64,000 nt of DNA from Escherichia coli (GCF_003018235.1 NZ_CP027439.1), one strand, 5' to 3'. Positions 1 through 39,006 are shown, counted from the stretch's first letter. Notes: generated by a model from the letters alone, not told the origin. Program-made: numbers and translations.

Positions 1-1
1 C

Positions 2-1996: not shown

Positions 1997-2001
1997 TCAA
2001 A

Positions 2002-2031
2002 ATCACCGGAGCCCCTGCTCCGGTGATTTTT

Positions 2032-2033
<2 letters not shown>
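2002..2033 (+). terminator. Rho-independent terminator after RND gene
   Basis: GC hairpin caccggagc/gctccggtg followed by T-run (attttttc) right after stop codon. Confidence 0.6.
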
Positions 2034-2955
<922 letters not shown>

Positions 2956-3067
2956 TTAATCATGAGAAGGGTTCATAGACGCAATCATTTTAGCCTCGTT
3001 ACTCTCAATAATCACAGTTGATACACTTCTTCACAGTTAAATTCTCCAATTGCTCAGCAGGTTTATA

Positions 3068-3838
3068 ATGAAGGTTTTAATTGTCGGTGCGACCGGCAGT
3101 ATTGGTCGTCATGTTGTAGAAATGTCGATAGAAATGGGACATCAATCGAAAGCCCTGGTCCGTTCCCCAAAAAAAAGAAAATTGTTGCCACAGGGAATTG
3201 AGATTGTTTATGGCGACGTCTCTGTCCCGGAAACATTGACCGGCATTGGAGATGATATCGATGCCGTTATTTTCACCCTGGGATCAGATGGATTAGGCCG
3301 CATTGGTGCTCGGGCAGTGGACTATGGCGGGGTGAAAAATATTCTTCAACAACTTAAGCATCGGCGAGTCAGAGTTGCGCTGATGACTGCCATCGGCGTG
3401 ACAGAAAGAGAAGGTTCGTATAACCGCCAGACGGAAGCGCATGACTGGAAACGTCGTGCGGAACGCCTGGTTCGTGCCAGCGGTCACCCCTATACCATCG
3501 TCAGGCCTGGTTGGTTTGATTACAACAAACCGAATGAACAACAAATCGTCATGTTACAGGGAGACAGACGTCATTCAGGCACACCGATCGATGGCGTGAT
3601 TTCCCGTAAACAAATAGCCAGAGTACTGGTTAGCGCATTAACAGACGATGATGCTAAGAATAAAACGCTTGAACTCATTGCCGAAAAAGGGAAAGAGCAA
3701 CAGAATCTCACCCCACTTTTCTCAGCCCTGCAACAGGACCGCGCAGATAAAAACGATGGTATTCATGATTTAAACAACATGCCCATGGACTCAGAGCCTG
3801 AGTGCGTTGTTCGTGATCTTAATGCAATGACGCAATAA
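3068..3838 (+). CDS. NAD(P)H-binding oxidoreductase, NmrA-like/atypical SDR
   Basis: Rossmann motif MKVLIVGATGSIGRHVV at N-terminus; start chosen at internal ATG of ORF 3050..3838. Confidence 0.75.
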   Translation: MKVLIVGATGSIGRHVVEMSIEMGHQSKALVRSPKKRKLLPQGIEIVYGDVSVPETLTGIGDDIDAVIFTLGSDGLGRIGARAVDYGGVKNILQQLKHRRVRVALMTAIGVTEREGSYNRQTEAHDWKRRAERLVRASGHPYTIVRPGWFDYNKPNEQQIVMLQGDRRHSGTPIDGVISRKQIARVLVSALTDDDAKNKTLELIAEKGKEQQNLTPLFSALQQDRADKNDGIHDLNNMPMDSEPECVVRDLNAMTQ

Positions 3839-3848
3839 GATAAATATA

Positions 3849-3878
3849 AAAAAGGCGGTATATTCTACCGCCTTTTTT
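3849..3878. terminator. Bidirectional hairpin terminator between convergent genes
   Basis: aaaaaaggcggta-tatt-ctaccgcctttttt, stem flanked by A-run and T-run. Confidence 0.65.
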
Positions 3879-3880
3879 AA

Positions 3881-4936
3881 TTACGCCTTCAATGAGGCCA
3901 TATCGATCACAAAGCGATATTTTACATCACTCTTTAGCATCCGCTGCCAGGCCGTGTTAATATCCGAAATATTAATCAACTCAATATCAGACGTTATCTG
4001 ATGCTTTGCACAGAAATCGATCATTTCCTGTGTCTCCGCAATCCCACCAATGACCGAGCCAGCCACCGATTTTCGTCCTAAAATCAGCGGCGCGCTGTTC
4101 AGCATCGGATTCAAGTCTCCCAGATACCCCACAAGCACCAGTGTTCCGCTCAGCGCCAGCGTCGGAATATAGGGATTCAGATCATGCACATAAGGAACCG
4201 TATCGATAATCAAATCAAACTGGTTATGTGCTTCCTGCATCTGCTTTTCATCGGTTGAAATAACAATATGCGTGGCCCCCAGACGGCGAGCATCGGCCTC
4301 TTTGTTCGGCGAACGACTGAATAACGTGACTTCCGCACCCAGCGCTTTGGCTAATTTTATCGCCATATGCCCCAGACCACCCAACCCAACGACCACAACT
4401 TTGCTGCCCGGGCCAACATTCCAGTGACGAAGCTGTGACCAGGTGGTGATACCCGCGCACAGCAGCGGTGCTGCACCTTTTAAATCCAGCGTATCAGGTA
4501 CTTTGATAACGAATTTTTCGGTGACCACAATCTTGTCCGAATAGCCGCCATAGGTTGGCATATGGTCATGCCTGTCAATGTCGTTATAGGTTAAGGTATT
4601 GCCCTCTTCACAGTACTGCTCCAGCCCCTGCTCACAGGGCTTACAATGCTGGCAGGAGTCCACCATGCAACCTACACCGGCATAGTCGCCCACGCGGAAT
4701 TCGGTCACCGCCTTGCCAATCTGAGTCACTCGGCCAATGATTTCATGCCCCGGCACCATCGGATATTTTACACCGCCCCAGTCATTAAACGCATTGTGGA
4801 TGTCTGAGTGACAAACGCCGCTGTATAAAATCTCGATAACCACATCGTTATCGCGCGGATCGCGGCGAACAAAATTGTGTGGTACTAAATCCTCTTTCGC
4901 GGCAAAAGCGGCATAACCTTTCACATTTAAGGTCAT
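3881..4936 (-). CDS. Zinc-type NAD(P)-dependent alcohol dehydrogenase (YahK/cinnamyl-ADH-like)
   Basis: GVCHSDIH zinc motif, GHEIIGRV, GLGGLGHMAIK Rossmann motif; start at ATG 4936 (MTLNVKG) preceded by GGAG. Confidence 0.9.
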   Translation of the reverse strand: MTLNVKGYAAFAAKEDLVPHNFVRRDPRDNDVVIEILYSGVCHSDIHNAFNDWGGVKYPMVPGHEIIGRVTQIGKAVTEFRVGDYAGVGCMVDSCQHCKPCEQGLEQYCEEGNTLTYNDIDRHDHMPTYGGYSDKIVVTEKFVIKVPDTLDLKGAAPLLCAGITTWSQLRHWNVGPGSKVVVVGLGGLGHMAIKLAKALGAEVTLFSRSPNKEADARRLGATHIVISTDEKQMQEAHNQFDLIIDTVPYVHDLNPYIPTLALSGTLVLVGYLGDLNPMLNSAPLILGRKSVAGSVIGGIAETQEMIDFCAKHQITSDIELINISDINTAWQRMLKSDVKYRFVIDMASLKA

Positions 4937-5013
4937 CGTTGAATCTCCGAATAAGAAATGAAACGACATGATGGTCACACGGCGGCCATCATGTCCTTGG
5001 AAGAGTAAGAGGG

Positions 5014-5412
5014 TTATTGCGGGCGTAATTCGCCATATTTATAAGATGCCGTTGCGCCGCCATCAATCAGCAGATCGCTGCCGGTAATGTAGGTACCATT
5101 AGGCCCAAACAGAAACTCTGCCAGCGCACCAATCTCATCCGGCGTGCCTCCCCGCCCTGCCGGCGATTTATCAAGCATATTGCGATAAAACGCACCCCGT
5201 TCTGCGCTATTAAGCTCGTCATAGGCTAGGGGCGTAAAGATGATCCCGGCACTGATGCAGTTAATTCGCGCCCCACGTTTGCCCCACTTCACTGCTTCTG
5301 ACATGACACGGAGTGCATTACAACGCTTGGAAATCTGGTAGGCGTATAAGCTGTCTTCAATATCTTTCATCAGTGGCAACTCGAGCAGTTCCTCCGGCGG
5401 TAACGGGAGGGC
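5014..5412 (-). pseudogene. Truncated SDR oxidoreductase (C-terminal ~130 aa only), paralog of the gene at 6366..7193
   Basis: Translation LPLMKDIEDSLYAYQISKRCNALRVMSEAVKWGKRGARINCISAGIIFTPLAYDEL... aligns to the C-terminal half of the intact SDR; N-terminal half absent. Confidence 0.8.
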
Positions 5413-5535
5413 AGAATTTTCAAGATGTAGGCGTTTTATTTTATGGTTAATAATCACCGCCACTCTTATGGTGAGAGCATAAAAAAGCCCCCACGGGCTT
5501 TATTACTAAATTCAATACAAACAACAAATTATGCT

Positions 5536-5573
5536 CTTAACGTACGTTTTCGTTCCATTGGCCCTCAGACCCC
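5536..5573 (-). repeat. Tn3-family 38-bp terminal inverted repeat (solo end)
   Basis: Reverse complement GGGGTCTGAGGGCCAATGGAACGAAAACGTACGTTAAG matches the Tn3-family IR consensus GGGGTCTGA...TGGAACGAAAAC...CGTTAAG. Confidence 0.8.
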
Positions 5574-6270
5574 TCATACGGCTCTCGATGTATTCGTGGC
5601 AATCGGTTGGAATAGCAAAGGGTAACTGGTTATCCCGTAATGATTTGTCAAAATCGCCAGATGGGATCAGATAATCATCGAAATTCCTGTATCGGCGAGA
5701 TCCCTTTACCCAGATGTCACCTGAACGCAAGACTCCCTTCAGCTCATTCAGCACGCAAAATTCGTAATATTTTCGGTCAATGCCGGTGGGAGTGATCACC
5801 ACCTTTCTCCAGCTTTCCGGGATAAACCTGGTTGGCGCGGAAGGTGGTACTTTTCGGAGTTGTTTTCGATACATCTCTCTGACGGTATCAAGCGCGTCAC
5901 TGAGCTGCATTGCGGTAGGTGCAGCCCTGAACTGCAACGCGGACAGCATCCGGGGGGCGTATTTACGCAGCGTACTGTATTTTTCTGTGATTAGATGCAA
6001 CGGGTCGAAGTTGTCCTTACGTGACAGGAGCCGCGTCTCTTCCACACTGTTGATAAATTCCTGCCAGGGAAGGACGTCTTCTATTGCGGCCCAGGGATCT
6101 TCACCGGATTCTCTGGCATTAAGCAATGCCTGCCCGACGGTAACGTATTGCTTCAGCTTACTCTGAATCAGCTTTCCCGTTTGCTGGAGTCGTTCGGCCT
6201 GCGTGCGTTTTGCCCTGCTGAACAGACTGCCCAGAATACGCTCGTGCAGATCAATAACTTCGTCAGTCAG
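5574..6270 (-). pseudogene. Internal fragment of a Tn3-family transposase (TnpA), truncated at both ends
   Basis: ORF 5512..6306 translation (LSALQFRAAP, KYYEFCVLNELKGVLRSGDIWVKGSRRYRNFDDYLIP) resembles the middle part of Tn3-type TnpA; ~230 aa of an expected ~1000. Confidence 0.5.
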
Positions 6271-6336
6271 CGTTCTAATGATACTGACGATTAATATAAA
6301 TAACATAGCCCAGCCAGAAGGCTGGGCTAACAGGAA

Positions 6337-6364
6337 GGCAGACTATTCACGTGTAGATAGTCTG
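6337..6364 (-). terminator. Hairpin downstream of SDR gene
   Basis: gcagactat-N10-atagtctgc, 9-bp stem immediately 3' of the minus-strand stop. Confidence 0.4.
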
Positions 6365-6365
6365 C

Positions 6366-7193
6366 TTATGGCCTGAGTTCCCCGTATTTATAAGAGGCCG
6401 TCACGCCGCCATCAATCAGAATGTCACTCCCGCTGATATACGTCCCGGCTGGCCCGAAAAGGAGTTCGGCTAATGCACCTATTTCATCCGGGGTTCCACC
6501 TCGTCCGGCTGGCGATTTTTCAAGCATATTCCTGTAAAACTCTCCACGCTCCGGACTCGTTAATTCGTCATAGGCCAGAGGGGTGAAAATAATCCCTGCA
6601 CTGATACAGTTAATGCGCGCTCCGCGTTTACCCCATTTCACGGCTTCCGCCATCACGCGCAGTGCGTTACCACGTTTGGATATTTGATAGGCGTAGAGGC
6701 TGTCATCAATTTCTTTAACGAACGGCAAATCCAGTAATGCCTCAGGTGTCAGCGTGGCTAATGCATCGGCCTGTGACTGGGTCAGGGCATCAACATTCAG
6801 ACGATGACTGGATTGTGAACCGATCACCACAGCGGAGCCTCCGGGGGCAATAACCTTACCAAATTCTTCAAATACGACAGCAGTCCCATATAAATCAACC
6901 CGAAGAATATCTTGGGCTTTGGCCTGTGAGGGGGAGAGCCCCGCTGTATGGATGACGCCTTTTATGTCCCCCAGCTCGGTGGCCGTGCGGACCAGGTTCT
7001 GGACTGACTGTCGGGAACTGACATCAACGACAGCGGTACTGATCGTAAAGCCTGCTTTTGACAGAATTTCTTCGGCTGACTGCGCACTTTCAGCCTTAAT
7101 ATCAGCCAGTAAAATATGCTTACCCACACTGACTCTGCGCGCAATCGCCTGCGCAATTGAGCCACTTCCAATGACCACAATGATCTCTTTCAT
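6366..7193 (-). CDS. Short-chain dehydrogenase/reductase (SDR) family oxidoreductase
   Basis: 275 aa; N-terminal glycine-rich motif IIVVIGSGSIAQAIARR and SDR catalytic YxxxK (YAYQISK). Confidence 0.85.
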   Translation of the reverse strand: MKEIIVVIGSGSIAQAIARRVSVGKHILLADIKAESAQSAEEILSKAGFTISTAVVDVSSRQSVQNLVRTATELGDIKGVIHTAGLSPSQAKAQDILRVDLYGTAVVFEEFGKVIAPGGSAVVIGSQSSHRLNVDALTQSQADALATLTPEALLDLPFVKEIDDSLYAYQISKRGNALRVMAEAVKWGKRGARINCISAGIIFTPLAYDELTSPERGEFYRNMLEKSPAGRGGTPDEIGALAELLFGPAGTYISGSDILIDGGVTASYKYGELRP

Positions 7194-7259
7194 GCGATGT
7201 TCCTTATTGTCGGTGGATCAGTGCGGCCTGATTACAGGCCGCAATCTCACTGGTTGATA

Positions 7260-8408
7260 CTACAATGCGAGTTTAAGGATTGTGGTTAACACATCCGGGG
7301 TGTAGGTCTCAGCCAGCCCGAACCAGCGGGTATTCCCTTCCAGGTTTTCCAGGATACGGGGAAAGTCTGCCTCCGTTATTCCCAGTTGTGACAGACGAGT
7401 TGGGGTACCAATTTTATCAAACCATTTTTCAAGCGCCAGGATGCCTTGTTCAGCGGTTTTCAAACCGAACAGATGCTGCGCAAAACGCTCAAACTGAGAA
7501 GGATTCTGGCTGTGGTACCACTTCATCCATGCAGGCATTACAACGGATAACCCTGCACCATGGGGAACATTAAAGAGGGCTGACAGAGAATGCTCAATCA
7601 TGTGATTAGGGTAGCTGAATCCTGACGTTCCGGCATAGATCAGGCCATTAAGTGCCAGCGTTGCTGCCCATGCAAATTCCGCCCGGGCGTTGTAGTCGCC
7701 CGCATCTGCCAGCAACATTTCCGTCGTCTCCATGACCGTTGCGATAACCGATTCAACCAGACGTGACTGGATTTTCGGCTGCACCGCTGCTGTGAAATAA
7801 CCTTCAATGGAATGGGCGATAATGTCCGCTGCCGAATAGACAAGATAGTCCCGGGAGACCGTCTGCATCAGTGCCGGGTTCACAACGGAGACTTTCGGAA
7901 ACGTATGCACGGAATGCAGAGCAAATTTTTCCAGCGTGGCGTCATTGGTGACAACGGCACCACCGTTCATCTCACTGCCGGTCGCGGCAAGAGTCAGAAC
8001 AGAAAACACGGGTAAGGCAGCTTCGATTTGTCCTTTACCGATAAACAAATCCCAGACGTCGTTCTCATAAAGTGCGCCTGCCGCGACAGATTTCGCACTA
8101 TCCAGTACAGAACCGCCGCCCACGCTTAAAATGGCATCAACCTGGTGAGCACGCGCCAGCTGAATACCTTCTCTGACCTTAGAAATCAGCGGGTTGCTGA
8201 CTATCCCGCCAAACTCTACATACTGAATGCCGTGCTTTGTCAGGCTGTCGCTGATAGTGCTGAACAAACCATCTCGCTTGATGCGGTCACTGCCAAACGC
8301 CAGCAGAACTTTACTGACTTTCTGCTCTGCTAGGATCTGGCCGATCAGCTTTTCTTTGTCTGCACCAAATTCAATTCGGGTCGGGTTATAAAAACTGAAA
8401 TTATCCAT
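7260..8408 (-). CDS. Iron-containing alcohol dehydrogenase (YqhD/BdhA-like aldehyde reductase)
   Basis: 382 aa, N-terminus MDNFSFYNPTRIEFG typical of Fe-ADH family. Confidence 0.85.
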   Translation of the reverse strand: MDNFSFYNPTRIEFGADKEKLIGQILAEQKVSKVLLAFGSDRIKRDGLFSTISDSLTKHGIQYVEFGGIVSNPLISKVREGIQLARAHQVDAILSVGGGSVLDSAKSVAAGALYENDVWDLFIGKGQIEAALPVFSVLTLAATGSEMNGGAVVTNDATLEKFALHSVHTFPKVSVVNPALMQTVSRDYLVYSAADIIAHSIEGYFTAAVQPKIQSRLVESVIATVMETTEMLLADAGDYNARAEFAWAATLALNGLIYAGTSGFSYPNHMIEHSLSALFNVPHGAGLSVVMPAWMKWYHSQNPSQFERFAQHLFGLKTAEQGILALEKWFDKIGTPTRLSQLGITEADFPRILENLEGNTRWFGLAETYTPDVLTTILKLAL

Positions 8409-8541
8409 CAGTCACCTCTGTGAAATTAAGTCTGTGAATGCTGTTCTGTGTAACAACACTATAAGCAACTGACTCACAACCAACCAGATGGTAATATGAT
8501 GAATCAGTTACAACTAAATGATGTAAATAAGAGTACTGCTC

Positions 8542-9498
8542 ATGATTAATGAACTGCGTTCAGTGACCACCTTTATCCGGACTGTTGAGCTGGGAAGTCT
8601 GAGTAAAGCTGCTGAAGCCCAGCAAATATCACCTCAGGCGGCGAGTAAGGCCTTAAAGCAACTCGAAAGCTCTCTGGGCGTGAGGCTGTTTCACCGCACA
8701 ACACGGAGTATGTCGCTCACTGAGGAAGGGCAACGGTTTCTCGAAGCAGCCAAACCAGCACTGACCGGGTTACAGCAGGCTTTTGCTTCTGTCCGGCAGA
8801 CGCGGGAGGGGTTTTCCGGGCCATTGCGCATAGTGGCTCCGCGTTCTGTTGTACAGCATATTATTCACCCTGTGCTGATTGAATATTGTCGGCTTTACCC
8901 GGAAGTTCAGCCTGATGTCCAGCTTGATGACGGGGTGGATAACTGGGTTGAGAAGCGCGTGGATGTTGGTTTTCGGATTGCTGTTTCACCGCAGGATGGG
9001 CTGATTGCCAGACGCCTGTTTCCGTTGCAACTGATTATATGCGCATCGCCTGCATATCTTCGCAAATATGGTATGCCGAAATCACTGCATGACCTCAGTA
9101 ATCACCGCTGTAATACATTTCGACATGCCGCAACCGGGCGATTACTTCCCTGGACTGTGAAGGAAGGAGACAACATACAGGAGCACTATGTTAAGCCTGC
9201 CATGTCGACAAATGATGAGATGCTGGAATTACATGCCGTCCTTGCCGGAGAAGTTATTGCTCAGGTTGCAGCACCGACAGCAGCGCAATACATACGATCA
9301 GGTCAGCTTGTGCCACTGTTACTGGAGAATATCGCTGATGTCCACAGCCTGTTTCTCTATTATGGGAGCCGGGTCGCTCAGCCACTTCGTATTCGCCGTT
9401 TTATTGACCTTGCTGTTGAGCGCCTGGCCAGTAGAAAGGGCTTTGTTTTTTCCTCAGAAGAACTGAGACAGGCACATATTGAAGGTATTGCAATGTAA
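8542..9498 (+). CDS. LysR-family transcriptional regulator
   Basis: HTH region plus LysR effector domain; divergent from Fe-ADH; paralog of 12146..13105. Confidence 0.9.
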   Translation: MINELRSVTTFIRTVELGSLSKAAEAQQISPQAASKALKQLESSLGVRLFHRTTRSMSLTEEGQRFLEAAKPALTGLQQAFASVRQTREGFSGPLRIVAPRSVVQHIIHPVLIEYCRLYPEVQPDVQLDDGVDNWVEKRVDVGFRIAVSPQDGLIARRLFPLQLIICASPAYLRKYGMPKSLHDLSNHRCNTFRHAATGRLLPWTVKEGDNIQEHYVKPAMSTNDEMLELHAVLAGEVIAQVAAPTAAQYIRSGQLVPLLLENIADVHSLFLYYGSRVAQPLRIRRFIDLAVERLASRKGFVFSSEELRQAHIEGIAM

Positions 9499-9717
9499 CA
9501 GTACTGTTCTTCCCGGTATCGAAGTTAATACCTTCAATAAATCCATCACACTGGATGACTTTCTCCCAGATGCACTTCCCTCTCTCACACACAACTCGTT
9601 TGTATAATGTTGCGTGGTGCGAGGGACATCTGCTCCCGCAGCGACCGGAAACATCCCTGCCGTCAGGCAGAGAGCGAGGGACGCTGCCAGACCCTGCATT
9701 TTTTTGTCTATTTTCAT
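9454..9717 (-). CDS. Possible small secreted protein (signal-peptide-like N-terminus)
   Basis: MKIDKKMQGLAASLALCLTAGMFPVAAGA looks like a signal peptide; overlaps the 3' end of the LysR gene by 45 bp; no other support. Confidence 0.2.
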   Translation of the reverse strand: MKIDKKMQGLAASLALCLTAGMFPVAAGADVPRTTQHYTNELCVREGSASGRKSSSVMDLLKVLTSIPGRTVLLHCNTFNMCLSQFF

Positions 9718-9823
9718 ACAGATTTCCTGATACAGGAACGCCCGATTCCTGTCTGTGAATACGTCATGCCAACGAACAGAGAAAAACGGCCCCTGTACGG
9801 AGCCGTTAGCATGGTAAAACAGG

Positions 9824-10600
9824 TTATGACAGGTTACCGGCGTAGACCTGTGTCTGGCCGCCGTCGATGGTAAGATTTATACCGTTGATAAAACTGCTGG
9901 CGTCGGATGCCAGGAACACGACGCCGTCCCCGATCTCATCAGCACGACCAACACGTCCGACGGGGATCTCCGCTGCACATTTGGCGGCGAAGGCTTCAAC
10001 CTCCTCCGGGGTCATACCCTGCACGGTTTCATAGCCTTCAGTCGGGATAGCCCCTGGACTGATAACATTCACGCGGATATTGCGTGTCTTGAGCTCAGTG
10101 GTCCAGACTCGCGCCATGCCGATAACTGCCGCTTTGGTCGCGGCGTAAGTCGTGTATTCCGGCAGACCAATAAAGGCGGTCATGGAGGACGTCAGAATGA
10201 TTGAACCGCCAGCATTCATAATGGGCAGCATGGCTTGTACGGTGAATAACTGCCCCTTAAGGTTGATGTTCAGCATGTTGTCGAAAAACTCTTCGCTCAC
10301 GTCCTCTAGTTTCTTGCCTATGTAGTAGCCGGCATTAGAGAAAATGATGTCCAGATGACCTTTTTCCAGCTGAATGACTGAGGCGACATTCACCATGTCT
10401 TCCTTGCGGGAGACATCGGCAACGATGGCACGGGCATTTGGGCCAATCTGTTTAATCGCCTCATCCAGGACGTCCTGGCGGCGGCCCACTATATAGACAA
10501 AAGCACCTTCTTCAGCAAGGCGCTTTGCGCCCCCCAGACCGAGTCCCGTTCCGCCACCCGTGACCAGTGCCACTTTACCTTTTAACGTTTGAACCGACAT
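9824..10600 (-). CDS. SDR family oxidoreductase
   Basis: 258 aa; KVALVTGGGTGLGLG cofactor motif and NAG motif. Confidence 0.9.
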   Translation of the reverse strand: MSVQTLKGKVALVTGGGTGLGLGGAKRLAEEGAFVYIVGRRQDVLDEAIKQIGPNARAIVADVSRKEDMVNVASVIQLEKGHLDIIFSNAGYYIGKKLEDVSEEFFDNMLNINLKGQLFTVQAMLPIMNAGGSIILTSSMTAFIGLPEYTTYAATKAAVIGMARVWTTELKTRNIRVNVISPGAIPTEGYETVQGMTPEEVEAFAAKCAAEIPVGRVGRADEIGDGVVFLASDASSFINGINLTIDGGQTQVYAGNLS

Positions 10601-10630
10601 AAATATTCCTCTGTTTGTAATACAGGTGGC

Positions 10631-10924
10631 TTACGCGATCGTCTGCACGACGCTCATGCAGGAGAGATCGATAATGTCTTTGATTTTCTCTCCGAGGGCC
10701 AGATGATCAGGGGCGCGCATATAGCGCTCCCAGTCCTCCCGGGAATCGAACTCGGCAATCAGCACCACTGCCTGGGTTTCTGACCAGTCGAGTGTCTTTT
10801 CAACGCTGAAGGCTTTGATCCTCGGGACGATGGAGGGCAATTGGCGAAGGATGTCCACTACAGCAGACAGCTCGGCCTCAGTCTTACCTGGATATGTTTT
10901 GCCTATGAAAATATGTTTCAACAT
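10631..10924 (-). CDS. Dabb-family stress-responsive alpha/beta-barrel protein
   Basis: 97 aa; size and sequence pattern typical of Dabb domain proteins co-transcribed with oxidoreductases. Confidence 0.6.
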   Translation of the reverse strand: MLKHIFIGKTYPGKTEAELSAVVDILRQLPSIVPRIKAFSVEKTLDWSETQAVVLIAEFDSREDWERYMRAPDHLALGEKIKDIIDLSCMSVVQTIA

Positions 10925-10935
10925 TCGGGGCTCCT

Positions 10936-11997
10936 TCAGGCATTTTTCAGCGTAGACATGTCAATAGAGAAACGATATTTGACGTCACCCTTTTCCAGGC
11001 GGACATAAGCTTCATTAATCTCCTGGATGCCGATGACTTCCACATCGGATGTGATGTTGTGCTGACCGCAGAAATCGAGCATTTCCTGCGTTTCAGCAAT
11101 CCCGCCAATAAGTGACCCGGACAGGCTACGGCCGCCAAAAATAAGGCTGTAGGCTGAGACATCAATTTTGTCAGCAGAAGCGCCAACCAGCGTCAGATTA
11201 CCTTCCGGATGCAGCATATTGAGGTAAACATTCAGATCATGTGGAGCGGATACGGTATCGAGAATAAAATCAAACGTACCGGCGTGAGCCTGCATCTCTT
11301 CCGGGTTTCGTGACACCACTACTTCATGAGCACCAACACGGAGTGCATCTTCTTTCTTGGATGGAGATGTGGTGAAGAGAACCACATGTGCGCCCAGGGC
11401 GCGGGCAAATTTTACGCCCATATGTCCTAGTCCGCCCAGACCAACGATACCCACTTTCTGACCGGCCTTTACACCCCAGCGACGGATAGGGGAATAGGCA
11501 GTGATGCCCGCACATACCAGCGGAGCAACACCTGCCAGATCGAGATTTTCCGGTACCTGAAGAACAAAATGCTCATCCACCACAATGCTTTCGGCATAAC
11601 CACCGTAGGTCACCGGAGCAGTACCGTAATTATCCGGTGAGTTATACGTCAGCACCTTGGTAGGGGAATACTGTTCACGATTCGCTTTACAGTGAGGGCA
11701 GGTTGGATCGGCATCGACCAAGCAGCCCACAGCGACAATATCGCCAGCCTTGTGTTTTGTCACCGCCGTGCCCACCGAGATAACCCGGCCTACAATTTCA
11801 TGACCCGGAACAATCGGGTAAATGGTTGGCATGGCGCTGCCGAACTCATCACGCACATGGTGAATGTCAGAGTGGCAAACCCCGCAGAACAGAATATCAA
11901 TCCGGACATCGTGCTCATTCGGATCACGACGCGGGATCGATAACGGTGCAAGTGGGGATGTTGCGGACGTGGCCGCATAAGCTTTGGTTACGTACAT
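10936..11997 (-). CDS. Zinc-type NAD(P)-dependent alcohol dehydrogenase
   Basis: GVCHSDIH, GHEIVGRV, GLGGLGHMGVK motifs; paralog of 3881..4936. Confidence 0.9.
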   Translation of the reverse strand: MYVTKAYAATSATSPLAPLSIPRRDPNEHDVRIDILFCGVCHSDIHHVRDEFGSAMPTIYPIVPGHEIVGRVISVGTAVTKHKAGDIVAVGCLVDADPTCPHCKANREQYSPTKVLTYNSPDNYGTAPVTYGGYAESIVVDEHFVLQVPENLDLAGVAPLVCAGITAYSPIRRWGVKAGQKVGIVGLGGLGHMGVKFARALGAHVVLFTTSPSKKEDALRVGAHEVVVSRNPEEMQAHAGTFDFILDTVSAPHDLNVYLNMLHPEGNLTLVGASADKIDVSAYSLIFGGRSLSGSLIGGIAETQEMLDFCGQHNITSDVEVIGIQEINEAYVRLEKGDVKYRFSIDMSTLKNA

Positions 11998-12145
11998 TCT
12001 TTGCTCCCGTTGATCCCGGCCAGAAGTGCCGGGAAGTGCGACTACTATAGGGAGCTAATTATCAATATAATAGATAGTAAATCATTGAAGCTGTTGCAAG
12101 TATTAATTGATAATAATGTGAGTTATCCTGATAGGGAAAGGCATC

Positions 12146-13105
12146 ATGCTGACAAAAGACATTCGCGCGATAGATATACTGGCGAAAGCTGTGGAACTGG
12201 GCAGCCTGCGCCAGGCCGCTCTCGCAAAAGGGGTGACCTCACAGGCCGCCAGCCAGACACTCGCTCAACTTGAAGACTCACTGGGGGTGCGCCTTCTGCA
12301 CCGCACAACTCGCAGCCTCTCTCTGACAGAGGAGGGCAGGCAACTGCTGGAAGCCACACAACCGGCACTGGCGGTACTGGACCGTGCCCTTACGCGTGCA
12401 CGGCAGGCAAAGGACGAGGTTGCCGGTCCGTTGCGTATTGTTGGTCCCCGATCGGCCTTCACACCGGTTTTATGGCCAGTCATTGACGAATACTGCCGGC
12501 GCTACCCGGACGTTCAGCCAGAAGTGCAGCTTGATGACAACGTGGGGGACTGGGTTCTTGATCGAGTGGACGTGGGGTTTCGGTTTGGTTCTCCGCCTGC
12601 AGAGGGGCTTATCGCACGCCCGCTGTTCCGTGCGCAACTGATTATCTGTGCATCACCGGCATACCTCCGCACGCATGGTGTACCCCGTTCGCTGGAGGAA
12701 CTAGCGTACCACCGCTGCAGCGTCTTTCGCCATCCGGGAACGGATGCAATATTTCCCTGGTACGTAAATATAGGGGGAGAAATCCAGACACGAGAGTTTC
12801 CTCCAACCGTGGCAACAAACAGCACAGACATAGAAGTTGAGGCCACGCTGACCGGACAGGTCATCGCACAGCTCTCATCATTGTCCTCAGCTGCGCTGAT
12901 CCGCGCAGGCCGTCTTGTGCCCTTACTAACAGAGCATGTGGCCAGCCACCTTCATCTGTACGCTTACTACGGGAGCCGCAAAGCGCAGCCGCTGCGGGTC
13001 AGAAAATTTATCGAGCTCGCCGTCGAACGGTTAACGGACAACCGGGAGCTGACTCTGACTACAGATGAACTGCAGACGTATTCTGCTGAAAGGCTGAACC
13101 AGTAA
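12146..13105 (+). CDS. LysR-family transcriptional regulator
   Basis: 319 aa, HTH plus effector domain; divergent from the ADH gene. Confidence 0.9.
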   Translation: MLTKDIRAIDILAKAVELGSLRQAALAKGVTSQAASQTLAQLEDSLGVRLLHRTTRSLSLTEEGRQLLEATQPALAVLDRALTRARQAKDEVAGPLRIVGPRSAFTPVLWPVIDEYCRRYPDVQPEVQLDDNVGDWVLDRVDVGFRFGSPPAEGLIARPLFRAQLIICASPAYLRTHGVPRSLEELAYHRCSVFRHPGTDAIFPWYVNIGGEIQTREFPPTVATNSTDIEVEATLTGQVIAQLSSLSSAALIRAGRLVPLLTEHVASHLHLYAYYGSRKAQPLRVRKFIELAVERLTDNRELTLTTDELQTYSAERLNQ

Positions 13106-13725
13106 GTGACATGTACGAAAACGCCCTTTGTGAAAACAAGACGGGATTCAGATTCATAACCCAGTCAGATATGTCTGCTCCTGACACTTAGCTGACTTTT
13201 AACGGGAGAACAGCCTGGCGGGCTTATATATACAGTTATCGCAATAATTTGCGTGATTTCCTGTGCTGGGGACAATAATCCGCTCAGCACAATAATCGTT
13301 CTTAATTAGTGCCCCTCATTCATCAATCCCTCTCATCTTCTCCGCAGATCCGAAAACCTCCAGAGTAGGATCTTGTCTCACCCTACCGGCGCTGCACACC
13401 ACGACAACACAAGATGTAGCGGCTCTGTCAACTGCCTTGGCTACCAGATGTTGTGTTTATCTCTTCGTTCTGTGAGGGGCGCTGCACGCCGGAAAACGGA
13501 GCTTTGCTCAGGGCGTAATCGTGCTACACTTCCGGAAAGTCGTGAATACGTGAAAAATCGGATCACCTGAAAACCGCCATCCGTTAATTTAATCCAGTGG
13601 TTATCAGGCTGCTAATTATCAGACAAAGAAAACATCATGGCAGGGAAAGTCCTGTGTGTGATAGTCAGGTGAGTTAGCGGTGGTGAGGTAATGATTGCGG
13701 TTTGTGATTATTTATTGGAAAAGGA

Positions 13726-23105: not shown

Positions 23106-23306
23106 ATTGCGTATCATTATTGATACTCTATGATTTCTCTGTATACTGTTCATATTGTCATGAACGTATGGCAACAAACGCAGTAGTAGATAGCTGCTTC
23201 TGCATCTTGGCGCAACGCCTGACTCACAGGAGTGTGTATGAAATACCGCAATGAATTCATATCATTACAGCAATACTTTTTCAATCCGCGCCGCCCCCTC
23301 TCAAAC

Positions 23307-23322
23307 ATTTCGCATGCGAAAT
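23307..23322. promoter_or_regulatory. parS-like palindrome 2 (parA operator position)
   Basis: ATTTCGCATGCGAAAT 15 bp upstream of the parA start. Confidence 0.6.
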
Positions 23323-23337
23323 CTTAAGGACTGTTAC

Positions 23338-24204
23338 ATGACACTGAAAATTGGACCTATCGGAAAATTAATCGTTATATGTAGCCAGAAGGGCGGAATC
23401 GTAAAATCGCAGTCATCCAGCGAAATAGCATATGATCTTCGAGAATCAGGTTTTCGTGTGCTTGAAATTGATATGGACTGGACTACTGGTCTGACAGAGA
23501 GAGCTTTCCCCGATAGCTTACCCTATGAGATAGAGCGCGAACCTTTAAGTAACAGTTTTACACCCGGCGAAGCGAATACATATCAGCTTTTCTTCCCGGA
23601 CACTGAAGTTCGACCGATTGAGCTTCCTGGCGGGCGTTTTTTTATTGGCGCTACCAGTGAGCTTAATGAAATTAACTACCGCAACAGCGACTGTATGTTC
23701 GACTTCAGAGACCGTATTGAAGAACTGAAGAAACAGTTTGATTTTATTATTGCTGATTCAGCGCCATCATATTCAAACGTTATGATCGCCGCACATATGT
23801 CAGCTGACTATCTTCTGATCCCTACTCTGTTGGAGAAGCAGGCCCGAAATGCAGTTGGTAAACAGCTTACTTACATGCAAAAAATAAAACGGAACTATAA
23901 TCCATCGTTGCAGTTTATGGGCACTTATGTGACCCAAACACCGGTAAAAAATTATAAAAAGCCGCTTAAAGAAGGGTATTTGGGACCTATTGATACACTG
24001 AATCTGAATCTACTCATTGAGATCCTTCAGGGAAAAGGATATTCCGAAGAGTACATTCTTGCCTATATATCATTTGTACCTGCTGCTGCCAAAGAAGCGA
24101 TAGAACTTGGCCTCTCATTTGATGAATATGATCCTAAGTGTCTTCCTGCAATTCAGTATAAAGAGCTTACCCAGAAAATTATTCAGATCGCAGGAGATAA
24201 ATAA
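23338..24204 (+). CDS. parA: ParA-family partition ATPase
   Basis: Deviant Walker A (ICSQKGGIVKSQ); overlaps parB start (TAATG). Confidence 0.8.
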   Translation: MTLKIGPIGKLIVICSQKGGIVKSQSSSEIAYDLRESGFRVLEIDMDWTTGLTERAFPDSLPYEIEREPLSNSFTPGEANTYQLFFPDTEVRPIELPGGRFFIGATSELNEINYRNSDCMFDFRDRIEELKKQFDFIIADSAPSYSNVMIAAHMSADYLLIPTLLEKQARNAVGKQLTYMQKIKRNYNPSLQFMGTYVTQTPVKNYKKPLKEGYLGPIDTLNLNLLIEILQGKGYSEEYILAYISFVPAAAKEAIELGLSFDEYDPKCLPAIQYKELTQKIIQIAGDK

Positions 24205-25235
24205 TGGCCAAGAAACCGTTTATGAAACGACTCAAGGCGCAGCAGGAAATGAAAAAAAACTCTGCTGTTGTCTCTGATATTGAACAAGTCATTGCAAATA
24301 AACAGCCAGATGAGAAGAGCCATGACGTATCTGCGCACCAGATTTTGACAGATATTTCCCGCCCGGTTCTTGAACCTGATGGACAGATAATCCGCGTCGA
24401 TATAAACCTGGTTTATGCTGAGGAACAAGTACGACCTGAAGAAGATTTCGATGAAGAGGTTATCGATGGTATGGCAGATACTTTCGAAACCATAGGGATG
24501 CTTACCCCGCCTCGTTGTTATCCCCGCGACAGACGTGGATACCAGATATGGTTAGGAGAAACACGAGTTCGTACTGCACGTAAACGTGGTGATACCCATA
24601 TTGATATTTATGTCGGTAAACCACCACGAGAAAGAAAAGAACGAATCATTGGTCAGCTCATTGAAAACCTTCAGCAATCGGGTTTAAAACCATTAGCGAC
24701 TGCAAGATCGTTCTATGAACTTAAGCATCACTTCAATATGACGGGTGAACAGATCGCAAAAACGATGGGTAAACCAACCTCATTTGTCAGTAAACATCTT
24801 CGTCTCATTGATGCTCCAGAGAATGTTACCGCCCTTCTCCGGGATAAAGTGACATCCGATATTGATTTGGCTTACACACTAATACAGGTAAATGAAAGGG
24901 CTCCTGAAGAAGCCGAGAAGCTTATTGCAGCTGCGCGGGAATCTGGTATTTCACGCGCGCAAGTTAAAGCTGTTCTTGATGAGGTTAAGAACAAAAGCAA
25001 CCGTGAGATTTCGCATGCGAAATCTAAAGCTCAGAATAAAAGGCCATCCAAGTCTCTTAATAACAATTCAGATGTAAAAAGCTGGCAGGTAGTTGTCGAG
25101 ATTGACGGTCAGCAGGGAGTAATAATGACCGACCGTGCGCCAGAGGAAGATGGCTATGTGTGGGTTAAATTAGATATTGGTGAAATATCCGTCGAGGCTT
25201 CAGAGGTTCGTGTCAAGGGAATGCGGTCTTTGTGA
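24204..25235 (+). CDS. parB: ParB-family partition protein
   Basis: 343 aa downstream of parA; ParB/Spo0J-like HTH region (GEQIAKTMGKPTSFVSKHLRL). Confidence 0.75.
   Translation: MAKKPFMKRLKAQQEMKKNSAVVSDIEQVIANKQPDEKSHDVSAHQILTDISRPVLEPDGQIIRVDINLVYAEEQVRPEEDFDEEVIDGMADTFETIGMLTPPRCYPRDRRGYQIWLGETRVRTARKRGDTHIDIYVGKPPRERKERIIGQLIENLQQSGLKPLATARSFYELKHHFNMTGEQIAKTMGKPTSFVSKHLRLIDAPENVTALLRDKVTSDIDLAYTLIQVNERAPEEAEKLIAAARESGISRAQVKAVLDEVKNKSNREISHAKSKAQNKRPSKSLNNNSDVKSWQVVVEIDGQQGVIMTDRAPEEDGYVWVKLDIGEISVEASEVRVKGMRSL
25006..25025. promoter_or_regulatory. parS-like palindrome 3 (inside parB)
   Basis: AGATTTCGCATGCGAAATCT. Confidence 0.55.
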
Positions 25236-25672
25236 TGAAATCAACCCCATTCACTGAAATGGCCACTGCATTCCGTGGCCAAATTGTCCGTCTCTGGGCG
25301 CTTCGATATCCCGGAACTCAATCCGAAGCAGCTGCTGCATTAACAGAAGCTGCTATCAATCTTGGATACGTTACAAGAAGTAGACCTGTGCCTGGAGCAG
25401 CCTTATTATCATGGTTATCGAATCCCGCTGAAACGCCTCTGTGGGCGGCTCAGACCGCATTAACGATGATGCTCAAGATTGGCTGGAAGCCAGAGAGTAA
25501 TCAAGAATGGTGTGGGATGTCGGCACTGATATTCAGAGCTAATCGTAAACTTTCACTTGAACTGTTAGTTGCATCCTTGCCTGATAGTATAGACAGGCAA
25601 ACTGCTACAGGATGGTTTGTGGCTGCAATAGAAGAAGATGCCCACTACCGTTATAACAGGAAATTCAGATGA
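25232..25672 (+). CDS. Hypothetical protein
   Basis: 146-aa ORF overlapping parB stop. Confidence 0.5.
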   Translation: MMKSTPFTEMATAFRGQIVRLWALRYPGTQSEAAAALTEAAINLGYVTRSRPVPGAALLSWLSNPAETPLWAAQTALTMMLKIGWKPESNQEWCGMSALIFRANRKLSLELLVASLPDSIDRQTATGWFVAAIEEDAHYRYNRKFR

Positions 25673-25992
25673 CCTTTCAGGAGCTTGATGCTTGTATTGC
25701 TGGCTCTGGTAGGCGTTCTATCGCTTCAGCGTTAATCGCTTTTATTCTCGATGCGTTTGATGATGGACAGGACGGAGTTGATCTTGATTCTTTCCAGAGC
25801 CAGATGCGCTTCGTTCGCAACAATGTAACAACCGTAGCCAACTATCTGCAGCGACAGGGGGTTCTCCATATACTGTATTACCGTGATGGTGCCGCAGAAC
25901 GTCAGTATGAGACCGTTAATAATTATGGACGATGGGCAAAACAGCACTATCGTCCTTCTCAGGCACTTATTCAGTTGCACCGCCGTAATTAA
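25669..25992 (+). CDS. Hypothetical protein
   Basis: 107-aa ORF, overlapping start/stop with the upstream ORF. Confidence 0.5.
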   Translation: MTFQELDACIAGSGRRSIASALIAFILDAFDDGQDGVDLDSFQSQMRFVRNNVTTVANYLQRQGVLHILYYRDGAAERQYETVNNYGRWAKQHYRPSQALIQLHRRN

Positions 25993-25994
25993 AG

Positions 25995-26020
25995 CAAAGA
26001 TTTCGCATGCGAAATCTTTG
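25995..26020. promoter_or_regulatory. parS-like palindrome 4 (26-bp perfect palindrome)
   Basis: CAAAGATTTCGCATGCGAAATCTTTG. Confidence 0.6.
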
Positions 26021-26027
26021 CTTACCT

Positions 26028-26072
26028 AATGTGCCATAAAGCCCCGTCCTTCTGGACGGGGAGGATGTCAAA
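26028..26072 (+). repeat. 45-bp direct repeat with hairpin, copy 2
   Basis: AATGTGCCATAAAGCCCCGTCCTTCTGGACGGGGAGGATGTCAAA; stem shows compensatory changes relative to copy 1. Confidence 0.7.
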
Positions 26073-26074
26073 GG

Positions 26075-27349
26075 TCATCGTATCATTGCCACCGGGAGGT
26101 CAGTCCAGCGTGTCGTATATGCTGGTGACAACATTTCGCGCTTCATTTGCCACTCAGGAGCTATGCCTCGCCCCGCAAACCACACTTTCCCAAGTCCAGA
26201 ATGGTTAATACCGTCCACGACTTTCATCAATTGATTACTGTTGCTTCGGGGCAGAGTATCATCAAACAGATTCAACTGTGAAACTCCGGTCGGCGTAAAA
26301 TCGTTCAGCATGCAGCCTGCCCTTACATAGCGGTGGCCATTCACCCAGATCCTGTCCAGGGCTTTGACGGCAGCGGCAATGATGTCCGGTGTATCCTGCG
26401 TGGGGATGAGCAGCTTTTCACTGGCCAGATTACCGTAGTAGGGCTCATTTACGGCAAACGGCGATGTTTTCACAAATACGACAATATGCCTGCAGAACTG
26501 CCGTTCGCCGCGCAGCTTTTCCGCAGCACGCTCAGCGTACTGACAGACTGCCTGACGCAGGGCTTCATACGTTGTGATACGCTCCCCAAAAGACCTGCTG
26601 CAGACAATCTGCTGTTTCGGCGGGGGAGCTTCTTCAAGCGAAATACAGCTTTCTCCGTTGAGTTCCCGGACCGTTCTCTCCAGTACAACGTTGAAATTCT
26701 TCCGGATAAATACGGGGTTCGCGCGCGCCAGCTGCAGTGCAGTGGTGATGCCCATTGTGCTTAGTTTCCTGGATATCCTGCTGCCAACTCCCCAGATTTC
26801 TTCCACCGGCTGCAGTGAAAGCAGTTTCTCCGTTCGTTTCGGATTGTGTGATGTCAGGGCAAGCACACCACCGAATTGTGGCCATTCCTTGGACGCCCAT
26901 TGCGCGCTTTTAGCCAGCGTTTTGGTTGGCCCCATCCCGACACCTATTGTCAGCCCCGTTCCTGAGCGCACGTGTTCGCGTAGCTGCCGCCCAAAGTCCT
27001 CATAGTCGATGCAGTTGTCTATACCACGGATATCGAGAAACATCTCATCGATGCTGTACTGTTCCACACGTGGCGCCAGCTCTTCTAGGTGAGTCATCAC
27101 CCTGTTAGACATGGACGCGTACAGCTCGTAATTGCTTGAGAACACGATGATCTGCTCAGAGAATTCCGCCTTCTTCAGTTGAAACCACGGCACTCCCATT
27201 TTGATACCCAGCAACTTCGCTTCTTTTGAACGGGCGATAACGCAACCATCATTGTTACTGAGTACCACAACCGGCTTGTTTCGCAAATCAGGTCGAAATA
27301 CTTTCTCGCAGCTGGCATAAAATGAATTCACATCAGCGAGCGCAAACAT
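26075..27349 (-). CDS. umuC: Y-family translesion DNA polymerase V catalytic subunit (UmuC/MucB-type)
   Basis: 424 aa; N-terminal [41 protein letters not shown]. Confidence 0.9.
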
Positions 27350-27771
27350 CAGCGTACCTCACGCGTCTTGTGTATGAATGCCGTCACTACCCCGAAAATC
27401 TGCAGATCTTCCGGATAGAGGGTGGGGTAGGCTGGATTCATCGGCAGCAGGGCAATACGGGGCTTAAGCTGCAGGCGTTTGACAGTAAACTCGCCGTCAA
27501 TTTCAGCAATAACGATGTCCCCCTGCAGTGGTTTTTCAGCTTTATCGACCACCATCAGATCACCGGAGTGCAACCCCATATTCTGCATCGAATCACCTAT
27601 GGCCCGGACAAAGAAAGTTGCAGCCGGACGTCGGATACAGTAGGCATTCAGATCCAGTTCGTCTTCGGTGTAGTCTGCGGCCGGTGACGGAAAACCTGCT
27701 GGGCAACGTTCGGTGAAAAGTGGTGCGGTAGATAGTTCTGGTTCAGGTGCCGCTGGAACAAAAAGGATCAT
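27349..27771 (-). CDS. umuD: UmuD/MucA-type protein (LexA-like self-cleaving peptidase)
   Basis: GFPSPAADY and GDSM...K motifs; start MILFVPAAP; stop overlaps umuC start. Confidence 0.85.
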
Positions 27772-27793
27772 GGTATACTTCTTTAAATACCTG

Positions 27794-27809
27794 TTTATAT
27801 ATACAGTAT
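27794..27809. promoter_or_regulatory. LexA (SOS) box upstream of umuDC
   Basis: CTGTTTATATATACAG = CTGT-N8-ACAG, ~25 bp upstream of umuD start. Confidence 0.8.
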
Positions 27810-27892
27810 AATTTAAGATATTTTCCATTCCGCAAGCTGAATTTTACGCTGCCATGCCAGGTGATTGTTCTGGCGAACAAAACAGATGCGTG

Positions 27893-27901
27893 TTATCCAC
27901 A
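27893..27901. promoter_or_regulatory. DnaA box
   Basis: TTATCCACA exact consensus, upstream of the iteron cluster. Confidence 0.6.
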
Positions 27902-27974
27902 GAACCGGTGCATAACCCTGTGAGTTGATATCCGCTCTGCTCTGAAGGACAGGGTTTTTCGGCGGATTAGGTAA

Positions 27975-28220
27975 AGTCTACTGTATGCGACATTTTGATT
28001 TAGTTTTTTCCACTGGCTAGATCCAATAAATATATCCATATAGACCCTTAGAGATCCTAGAAGATCCCCGATCGCTGCAGGCCGCTCCGTTACTGGTCTC
28101 ATAGATGATTAATGTCTACTGTGTGCTACATAATGTCTATTGTATGCGACATAATATCTATTGAGTGCTACAAAAGGTCTACTATGTGCTACCATAAGGT
28201 CTACTGTGAGCTACTAAGAT
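27975..28220. repeat. RepFIB-type upstream iteron cluster
   Basis: Repeated ~21-bp units TCTACTGTGTGCTACATAA / TCTATTGTATGCGACATAA / TCTATTGAGTGCTACAAAA / TCTACTATGTGCTACCATAA / TCTACTGTGAGCTACTAAG plus nearby GATC sites. Confidence 0.8.
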
Positions 28221-28251: not shown

Positions 28252-29139
28252 ATGTCTAATAAAATCAATGAACAATTCCTGAATATCAAGGAAATTAACA
28301 AGCGAACGGGAGAAGAGCTCACGCTTATATCCACAAGTGAGTCCAGTGTTCAGGTAGTTCCGTTGATGCGCCTTGGTGTTTTTGTCCCGACTCTTAAAGG
28401 GACCGATAAAGCTAAAATTACCCGCAATACCGTTGATGCTTCGAAAGATTTTAATACGCTTTCGCTCTACAGCTCTGAGGGATTCGAGAAGGTCATTATT
28501 AGTGGTCCCCGACTTGATATGGACACTGATTTTAAAGTTTGGGTTGGCATAATTTCCGTTCTGACAGACAGTGATCATCCGATCACCAAAGAAGGAAAAA
28601 TCGTGATACCTTTCAGCGAATTTGCGCATCGCTGCGGATTCCCACGGGGGAGGATGAAACAGGAACTTCGCACTCGCCTGAAAGACTCGATAAAGAAGAT
28701 TATGTCCACAATTGTCGAATTTTCGAAAGACTCCGGGAAACCAACAGAGAAGACGCAGATGGTGCAACTCATGGGGGAGTCCACAATAGACATTGGTAAT
28801 GATCTTGTTCTGCTTACACCCAGTATGTCTTTAAAAGATCTTTACGCCAGTGAGTATAAAGTCCTGCTCAAGCTAAAAGCGCTAAAAAGCCTGGCTCGTA
28901 AGGAGTCTGCTCAGGCTCTGTATCTCTATTTGGAAGGTCTGCCCACAAATCCTGCTCCAGTTAGTATTAAGCGTTTTCGCGAACGTCTCAACCTTACATC
29001 CAGAACTGCACTGCAGAATGCCACCATTAAGAAAGCTCTAAAGCAGCTGGAAGAAATTGGTTATCTGGAATATCAGGAAATGAGGAGTGGCAGGGACATC
29101 GCGTTTAATATCATCAAACGTAATCCGAAGCTTCAGTAA
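28252..29139 (+). CDS. repA: Replication initiator RepA of a RepFIB-type (iteron) replicon
   Basis: 295 aa; PVALMRLGVFVP-like N-terminus, ITGPRLDMDTDFKVW and NPKL C-terminus match RepFIB RepA. Confidence 0.85.
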   Translation: MSNKINEQFLNIKEINKRTGEELTLISTSESSVQVVPLMRLGVFVPTLKGTDKAKITRNTVDASKDFNTLSLYSSEGFEKVIISGPRLDMDTDFKVWVGIISVLTDSDHPITKEGKIVIPFSEFAHRCGFPRGRMKQELRTRLKDSIKKIMSTIVEFSKDSGKPTEKTQMVQLMGESTIDIGNDLVLLTPSMSLKDLYASEYKVLLKLKALKSLARKESAQALYLYLEGLPTNPAPVSIKRFRERLNLTSRTALQNATIKKALKQLEEIGYLEYQEMRSGRDIAFNIIKRNPKLQ

Positions 29140-34728: not shown

Positions 34729-35558
<830 letters not shown>

Positions 35559-37634: not shown

Positions 37635-38069
37635 ATGAAAACTGAACTGACCCTGAATGTATTACAGACCATGAACGCACAGGAATATGAAGATATCCGG
37701 GCTGCCGGAAGTGATGAACGCCGTGAGCTGACTCACGCCGTGATGCGGGAGCTGGATGCGCCGGATAACTGGACGATGAACGGCGAGTACGGCAGCGAGT
37801 TTGGCGGCTTTTTCCCCGTCCAGGTCCGTTTCACGCCTGCCCACGAACGTTTTCACCTGGCGTTATGTTCACCGGGCGATGTCTCTCAGGTCTGGGTGCT
37901 GGTTCTGGTGAATGCCGGTGGTGAGCCGTTTGCGGTGGTTCAGGTACAGCGGCGGTTTGCACCGGAAGCCGTCAGCCATTCACTGGCACTGGCGGCGTCA
38001 CTGGATACGCAGGGGTACAGCGTTAACGACATCATCCATATCCTGATGGCGGAAGGAGGTCAGGTATGA
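37635..38069 (+). CDS. psiB: Plasmid SOS inhibition protein B
   Basis: [40 protein letters not shown]... matches F PsiB. Confidence 0.95.
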
Positions 38070-38785
38070 GCGTACGTTCACAGGCACTGGTTCCCCTCAG
38101 CACAGAGCAACAGGCCGCATGGCGGGCGGTGGCGGAGACAGAAAAACGCCGCCATCAGGGTAACACGCTGGCGGAATATCCGTATGCGGGGGCGTTTTTC
38201 CGCTGTCTGAACGGAAGCCGCAGGATATCGCTGTCTGACCTGCGATTTTTCATGCCGTCCCTGACCGCAGAAGAACTGCACGGCAACCGTCTTCAGTGGC
38301 TGTATGCAGTCGATGTGCTGATTGAAACACAGGGCGAGGTCTGCCTCCTTCCCCTTCCCGGTGATGCAGCAGAGCGGTTGTTTCCGTCGGTGCGGTTTCG
38401 TGTCAGGGAGCGCAGTCGCCATAAATCCGCGCTGGTCATGCAGAAGTACAGCCGCCAGCAGGCACGGGAGGCAGAGCAGAAAGCCCGTGCGTACCAGGCG
38501 CTGGTCGCTCAGGCTGAAATCGAACTGGCATTCCATTCGCCGGAAACAGTCGGAAGCTGGCATGCACGCTGGAGTGACCGGGTGGCAGAGCATGACCTGG
38601 AAACCCTGTTCTGGCAGTGGGGCGAGCGTTTTCCGTCACTGGCCGGAATGGAACGCTGGCAGTGGCAGGATATGCCGTTCTGGCAGGTTATTGCGGAAGC
38701 CAGTCTTGCAGCAAGAGAGGCCGGTCACGCTGTCCGTGAGATGGAGCGGTGGATGGTGCCGAACAAACTCCGGGAGGCTGCGTGA
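38066..38785 (+). CDS. psiA: Plasmid SOS inhibition protein A
   Basis: 239 aa immediately after psiB with ATGA overlap; matches F PsiA. Confidence 0.9.
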
Positions 38786-39006
38786 TGCGGCAACAATCAC
38801 ACAGATTACCCGTAAACAGCCTGAATGAGCGGGTTATTTTCAGGAAAAGTGAGTGTGGTCAGCGTGCAGGGATATGGGCTATGATGTGCCCGGCGCTTGA
38901 GGCTTTCTGCCTCATGACGTGAAGGTGGTTTGTTGCCGTGTTGTGTGGCAGAAAGAAGATAGCCCCGTAGTAAGTTAATTTTCATTAACCACCACGAGGC
39001 ATCCCT

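Follow-up and report, generated by a model that had tools for sequence, protein, structure and literature searches.

The window, the whole 64,000-nucleotide stretch of Escherichia coli DNA that we analysed, very probably contains an intact DNA polymerase V (pol V) operon of the samAB type, which forms a discrete module of cargo within an F-type conjugative plasmid. The operon consists of a umuD/samA-like gene and a umuC/samB-like gene, both of them full length, with a sequence resembling a LexA operator directly upstream. Operons of this kind are already known. This is an ordinary and routinely annotated feature of enterobacterial F-type plasmids, and nothing about it is conceptually new. We describe here the lineage to which the operon belongs, the plasmid that carries it and the state of its proteins, and we weigh how strongly it is likely to act in its host.

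The gene pair and its lineage

Both proteins fall clearly into pol V families. The 424-aa protein matched the UmuC subfamily model NF002955 over residues 1-421 with 801.9 bits (cut-off 431), and the 140-aa protein matched NF007621, the model of the autoproteolytic subunit of pol V, with 147.1 bits (cut-off 110). DinB (pol IV) models on the larger protein and LexA and HumD models on the smaller one all stayed under their own NCBIfam cut-offs. In Pfam, the polymerase contains IMS (PF00817), IMS_C (PF11799) and DUF4113 (PF13438, E = 1e-20), and the small subunit contains Peptidase_S24 (PF00717). The small protein also aligned with the solved UmuD/UmuD' structures 8gmt, 1umu and 1i4v at E values from 1e-33 to 1e-38 (best 8.5e-38). 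A search of the PDB by sequence for a solved UmuC or pol V structure found none and returned DinB/Dpo4-type polymerases only. Judged from these matches, the 424-aa protein is the catalytic subunit of pol V, in the UmuC/MucB/SamB subfamily of Y-family polymerases, and the 140-aa protein is an autoproteolytic accessory subunit of the UmuD/MucA/SamA type with the peptidase S24 fold. The UmuD/UmuC pair that a preliminary description of this DNA had claimed is thus upheld by both models.

The genes lie on the minus strand, and their positions, like that of the LexA box, are as previously described. The umuC/samB-like gene occupies 26075..27349 and the umuD/samA-like gene 27349..27771, and neither reading frame contains a frameshift or an internal stop. 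The stop codon of the umuD-like gene and the start codon of the umuC-like gene overlap by 1 nt (TGATG), the same junction as in umuDC of E. coli K-12. A mechanical ORF list proposes a longer umuD of 159 aa that begins with an ATG at 27828. We rejected this start: the ATG is ACG or ACA in relatives, the operator would fall inside the coding region, and the RefSeq annotation of a near-identical plasmid has the 140-aa start.

Several likenesses connect the operon to samAB of pSLT, the 60-MDa cryptic/virulence plasmid of Salmonella Typhimurium on which samAB was first described (Nohmi et al.). SamA and SamB are 87.1% and 88.0% identical in amino acids to the window proteins, they have the same lengths of 140 and 424 aa (423 and 1275 nt), and their genes overlap by 1 nt. 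Like the window operon, samAB is convergent to parAB and follows it immediately, and it is preceded by a homologous SOS box (TGCTGTATATAAAAACAGGC) and by about 160 bp of upstream sequence common to the two. The identity of 87-88%, the same lengths and the same place after parAB together make the window operon a member of the samAB lineage. The two are nevertheless distinct. The operons are about 80% identical in nucleotides, and their operators differ at 5 of 20 positions (the first base and positions 2, 12, 19 and 20). The carrier in the window is an E. coli F-type plasmid, the adjoining parAB is of a different type, and the other neighbour of the window operon is a Rep_3 replicon.

The other two systems in our lineage comparison, which covered SamAB, UmuDC and MucAB, are less similar in sequence. 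Chromosomal umuDC of K-12 has the same operon architecture, 1-nt overlap and LexA box position, and its catalytic and clamp-binding residues are all common to the window proteins. However, identity is only 50.7% for UmuD and 63.6% for UmuC, the aligned cleavage site is Cys-Gly in K-12 and Ala-Gly in the window, and the window copy is plasmid-borne. mucAB of pKM101/R46 (DNA polymerase RI) is a plasmid-borne pol V homologue that also has an Ala-Gly cleavage site, and its SOS box lines up with that of the window. Identity is lower still (43.1% for MucA and 55.1% for MucB), the overlap of the two mucAB genes is 13 nt long and the backbone is IncN. The operon, called umuDC-type in the preliminary description, is thus of samAB descent and not umuDC proper, which is only 51% and 64% identical.

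The expression signals of the operon are weak. A standard promoter scan with stricter thresholds found none upstream of umuD. The top hexamer pair of a looser scan is a candidate sigma-70 promoter (27805..27835, minus strand) made up of TTGCGG (27835..27830), a 19-nt spacer and TATACT (27810..27805), and it may serve as a weak promoter of the operon. The -10 hexamer of this candidate shares bases with the left half of the LexA box. We aligned eight upstream regions, among them those of samAB-type operons, umuDC and mucAB, and found the TTG of the candidate -35, about 20 nt upstream of the box, to be invariant. The Shine-Dalgarno sequence of umuD is AAGAAG in the window and AAGAGG in most relatives, a change of G to A.

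Two hairpins lie beyond the 3' end of the operon, and RNA folding of the interval that holds both (25985..26085, minus strand) gave -38.9 kcal/mol, with z = -7.15 relative to shuffles. The first begins 14 nt past the umuC stop codon and is a GC-rich hairpin, CCCCGUCC-AGAA-GGACGGGG, followed by CUUUAU (26042..26061, minus strand); from its predicted fold it is likely the terminator of the operon. The second is a perfect palindrome of 32 bp with a 14-bp stem, followed on the minus strand by UUUAAUU (25992..26023), and is probably a bidirectional terminator between umuC and the convergent genes on the par side. A standard terminator scan at its own thresholds reported none after umuC. Three more copies of the palindrome are present in a plasmid of Salmonella Newport (L005, at 1537-1569, 2971-2993 and 5567-5594), where they bracket a RES-domain gene and an SRAP-umuDC module and stand at the module boundaries. 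It has the look of an element reused as a module boundary or as a bidirectional terminator.

Plasmid setting, relatives and expected output

The operon had been placed between the partition module and RepFIB iterons, and most of this placement holds. On one side are a ParA-like gene (23251..24204) and a ParB/KorB-like gene (24204..25235). On the other side, iterons of about 21 bp, at 27978, 28116-28215 and 29141, flank a gene for a Rep_3 initiator (28252..29139, plus strand). The initiator, however, is only 45.6% identical to RepA2 of the pSLT RepFIB replicon and about 35 residues shorter, and nothing in it corresponds to the C-terminal 47 or so residues of RepA2. At this level of identity the replicon is probably RepFIB-like and not RepFIB proper, and by sequence it would be classed as a divergent RepFIB-like type. 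MOB-suite assigns sister plasmids to IncFIA or IncFIC. Between parAB and the operon are two overlapping ORFs on the plus strand (25232..25672 and 25669..25992, encoding 146 and 107 aa) in which we found no Pfam or NCBIfam match. In plasmids of both E. coli and Salmonella these two ORFs accompany the same parAB, and they may be partition or stability accessories.

Past the replicon is an F-type leading region, with an anti-restriction gene, ssb (34729..35259), psiB (37635..38066) and psiA (38066..38827), and then the tra region. The plasmid thus encodes the SOS inhibitor PsiB, which would be expected to curb RecA-dependent activation of the UmuD-like protein during conjugative entry. At the other end of the window, positions 1..13400 hold metabolic cargo: alcohol dehydrogenases, SDR oxidoreductases, LysR regulators, part of an RND efflux pump and IS100. 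Klebsiella plasmids are about 88% identical to this segment and one E. coli plasmid is 99.6% identical, a mixture that indicates a mosaic plasmid.

The copies in Salmonella and Enterobacter are homologous to the window over 26072..27932 only, so the operon together with about 160 bp upstream behaves as a discrete module. The proteins of those copies are 89% (UmuD-like) and 92% (UmuC-like) identical to those of the window. In the Salmonella and Enterobacter plasmids, an SRAP/YedK-like gene (SOS-response-associated peptidase) immediately precedes umuD and has its orientation (4880..5551 in L005 from Salmonella and 4864..5535 in L006 from Enterobacter) and forms with umuD and umuC a three-gene damage-tolerance cluster. 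A tblastn search of the window for a remnant of the SRAP/YedK-like gene found none (best E = 1.4).

The best DNA match is plasmid pDEC5B-4 of E. coli O55:H7 (NZ_CP038392.1), which is 99.6% identical over 2201 bp. It has the same flanks (parAB, the two hypothetical genes and the Rep protein WP_000066222.1) and differs by G93D in UmuD and by V188I, P321R and R404H in UmuC. Plasmids of ETEC O169:H41 are about 94% identical. In the comparison with one ETEC plasmid, LR882991 (L004, 4004..5700), dS is 0.019 for umuD and 0.33 for umuC, a disparity that implies a recombination breakpoint within the operon or at the gene junction. Matches in PLSDB number 1309 plasmids, mostly from Klebsiella and Salmonella, and in 838 of them the match extends over 80% or more of the query. 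A match is present in 111 of 5426 complete E. coli genomes, and 119 of the 122 places are plasmid-borne. PGAP already annotates all of these as 'umuD' and 'Y-family DNA polymerase'. None of the titles and abstracts listed in our literature search was about the samAB-type clade of E. coli F-type plasmids. Of the three closest relatives, two, pPE164 (L007, 3094..5669) and NZ_CP072314.1 (98.7-99% identity), have an IS3-family element within umuC and an intact umuD. The operon would therefore seem dispensable in the hosts of these plasmids, and loss of the gene is tolerated there.

How much mutagenesis might such an operon cause? The named systems span a wide range: mucAB is a strong mutator and samAB reportedly a weak one, a system found to mutate poorly at its native expression (PMC7092418). 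One possibility, to which we give rather less than an even chance, is that the window operon is intact and SOS-regulated but, as with samAB on pSLT, has a nearly silent mutator phenotype at the copy number that F-type plasmids have. Such an operon would persist by hitch-hiking or through a non-mutagenic role, for example damage tolerance, a checkpoint of the UmuD2C type or a safeguard for the newly transferred plasmid. The long spacer and weak -35 of the candidate promoter, the weak ribosome-binding site, the tolerated IS3 disruption of umuC in the nearest relatives and the small fraction of complete E. coli genomes that have this type of operon all agree with this possibility. In addition, E. 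coli as a host already has umuDC on its chromosome.

The selective record of the two proteins points the other way. By the method of Nei and Gojobori, and relative to the copies on ETEC, Salmonella Newport and Enterobacter plasmids, dN/dS is 0.05-0.09 for umuC and 0.07-0.16 for umuD. Values this low place both genes under strong purifying selection, which argues for some retained function of both proteins, that is, the proteins do something selectable. SamA' and SamB, moreover, are active once they are expressed: under a lac promoter they promote chemical mutagenesis (PMC7092418). A near-silent phenotype would be a matter of how large the effect is, and it does not conflict with an intact pol V. 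The likeliest state of affairs, in our view, is therefore that the pol V is intact and its phenotype modest at native copy number, and a strong mutator effect of the window operon should not be assumed.

A more ambitious reading, which we consider unlikely, is that the operon is an active second pol V timed by PsiB, such that RecA-dependent cleavage of the UmuD-like protein is blocked at conjugative entry and released under antibiotic stress. If this were true, the plasmid would bring about a measurable and transferable rise in the rate at which its host evolves resistance. The Rum polymerase of the SXT/R391 elements has recently, it is reported, been found to raise the rate of resistance evolution.

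Integrity of the two proteins

Key residues were located by aligning the two proteins with UmuD and UmuC of K-12, MucA and MucB of R46 and their plasmid relatives. The reference cleavage sites are Cys24-Gly25 in UmuD and Ala26-Gly27 in MucA, and the catalytic dyad of UmuD is S60 and K97. In the UmuD-like protein (27349..27771, minus strand), the cleavage site is Ala25-Gly26, of the MucA type, and the dyad is made up of the nucleophile Ser61 (in GDSM) and the general base Lys98 (in TVKRL), both of which align with the corresponding residues of UmuD and MucA. In E. coli UmuC, the catalytic carboxylates are D6, D101 and E102, the steric gate is Tyr11 and the clamp motif is QLNLF. The UmuC-like protein has Asp6, Asp101 and Glu102, the steric gate at Phe10/Tyr11 and the beta-clamp motif QLNLF at residues 358-362. 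The columns of D6, D101 and E102 are invariant among 143 diverse full-length UmuC representatives drawn from a library of 1.84 billion proteins. Mutated residues at the UmuD cleavage site were the defect that the preliminary description had named as a sign of a non-functional operon; the site, the Ser61/Lys98 dyad and the catalytic triad of the polymerase are all intact.

The sole lineage-specific oddity is Pro321 of the UmuC-like protein. All 14 of the other sequences read from the 90% cluster have Arg at this position, as do SamB, UmuC and MucB. The structural place of residue 321 was assessed by conservation alone. Among the 143 diverse representatives, the column holds Arg in 40, Pro in 32 and Leu in 19. 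The exact UmuD-like and UmuC-like proteins of the window occur on 28 and 14 public contigs, respectively. We rejected R321P as an inactivating lesion on two grounds: Pro is the second commonest residue at the column, and the exact allele is present on 14 contigs.

It is for these reasons very improbable that the operon is a decaying pseudo-operon, inactivated by R321P together with a weakened ribosome-binding site. The fixation of Arg321 in close relatives and in the named polymerases, the G-to-A change in the umuD Shine-Dalgarno sequence and the IS3 insertions in umuC of sister plasmids are what one might expect of decay. Against them stand reading frames of full length, a residue that is evidently a tolerated state, catalytic residues that are all intact and an allele that is found on 14 independent contigs.

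The predicted operator and mode of action

The reference form of the SOS operator is TACTG(TA)5CAGTA, a sequence of 20 bp. The predicted operator of the window, TACTGTATATATAAACAGGT on the coding strand (27789..27808, minus strand), agrees with the LexA consensus TACTGTATATATATACAGTA at 17 of 20 positions; here and below, operator similarity is given as mismatch counts. Its core is CTGTTTATATATACAG (27791..27806), and the 64-kb window has no second CTGT-N8-ACAG. Such a core is expected by chance 0.64 times per window and occurs at least once in 47 of 100 shuffles, so the core alone is not significant. The full 20-mer is a different matter: none of 100 shuffles contained a match with 3 or fewer mismatches, the number that the window operator has. 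The box is 18 nt upstream of the umuD ATG. When the eight upstream regions are aligned, it falls in register with the K-12 umuDC operator (TACTGTATATAAAAACAGTA), which differs from it at 3 positions, and with the R46 mucAB operator, and nearly all of its columns are invariant. With a heterology index of 2.77, the K-12 umuDC box is reported to rank with the strongest sites bound by LexA (PMC2994835).

The notion that AT-rich promoter DNA produced the motif by chance, and that the operon is free of LexA control, draws on the frequency of the 16-mer core in random sequence but is barely credible given the rarity of the 20-mer, its position before the start codon, its alignment with the proven umuDC and mucAB operators and its near invariance among copies whose synonymous sites are near saturation (dS 0.7-0.9). 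The LexA box had been claimed to occupy an operator position, and the agreement with the consensus, the distance to the start codon and the register with known operators bear this out. We infer that LexA controls the operon through this predicted operator.

By analogy with umuDC and mucAB, the operon should behave as a LexA-repressed and RecA-activated pol V. In an undamaged cell, the LexA protein of the host would sit on the operator overlapping the candidate -10 and keep the operon off. DNA damage would give rise to RecA nucleoprotein filaments, LexA would cleave itself and both genes would be transcribed. The TGATG overlap would couple translation of the UmuD-like and UmuC-like proteins. 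On a RecA filament, the UmuD-like dimer would then remove its first 25 residues at Ala25-Gly26 by means of Ser61 and Lys98. The shortened dimer, joined with the UmuC-like polymerase, RecA-ATP and, through QLNLF, the beta clamp, would be expected to bypass lesions and leave mutations behind.

The value of this analysis is that the lineage can be named as samAB-type, that the copy is intact and that its mutator phenotype is a quantity to be measured rather than assumed. Homologues of pol V on plasmids can make stress-induced mutagenesis transferable, and transferable stress-induced mutagenesis bears on the speed of resistance evolution.
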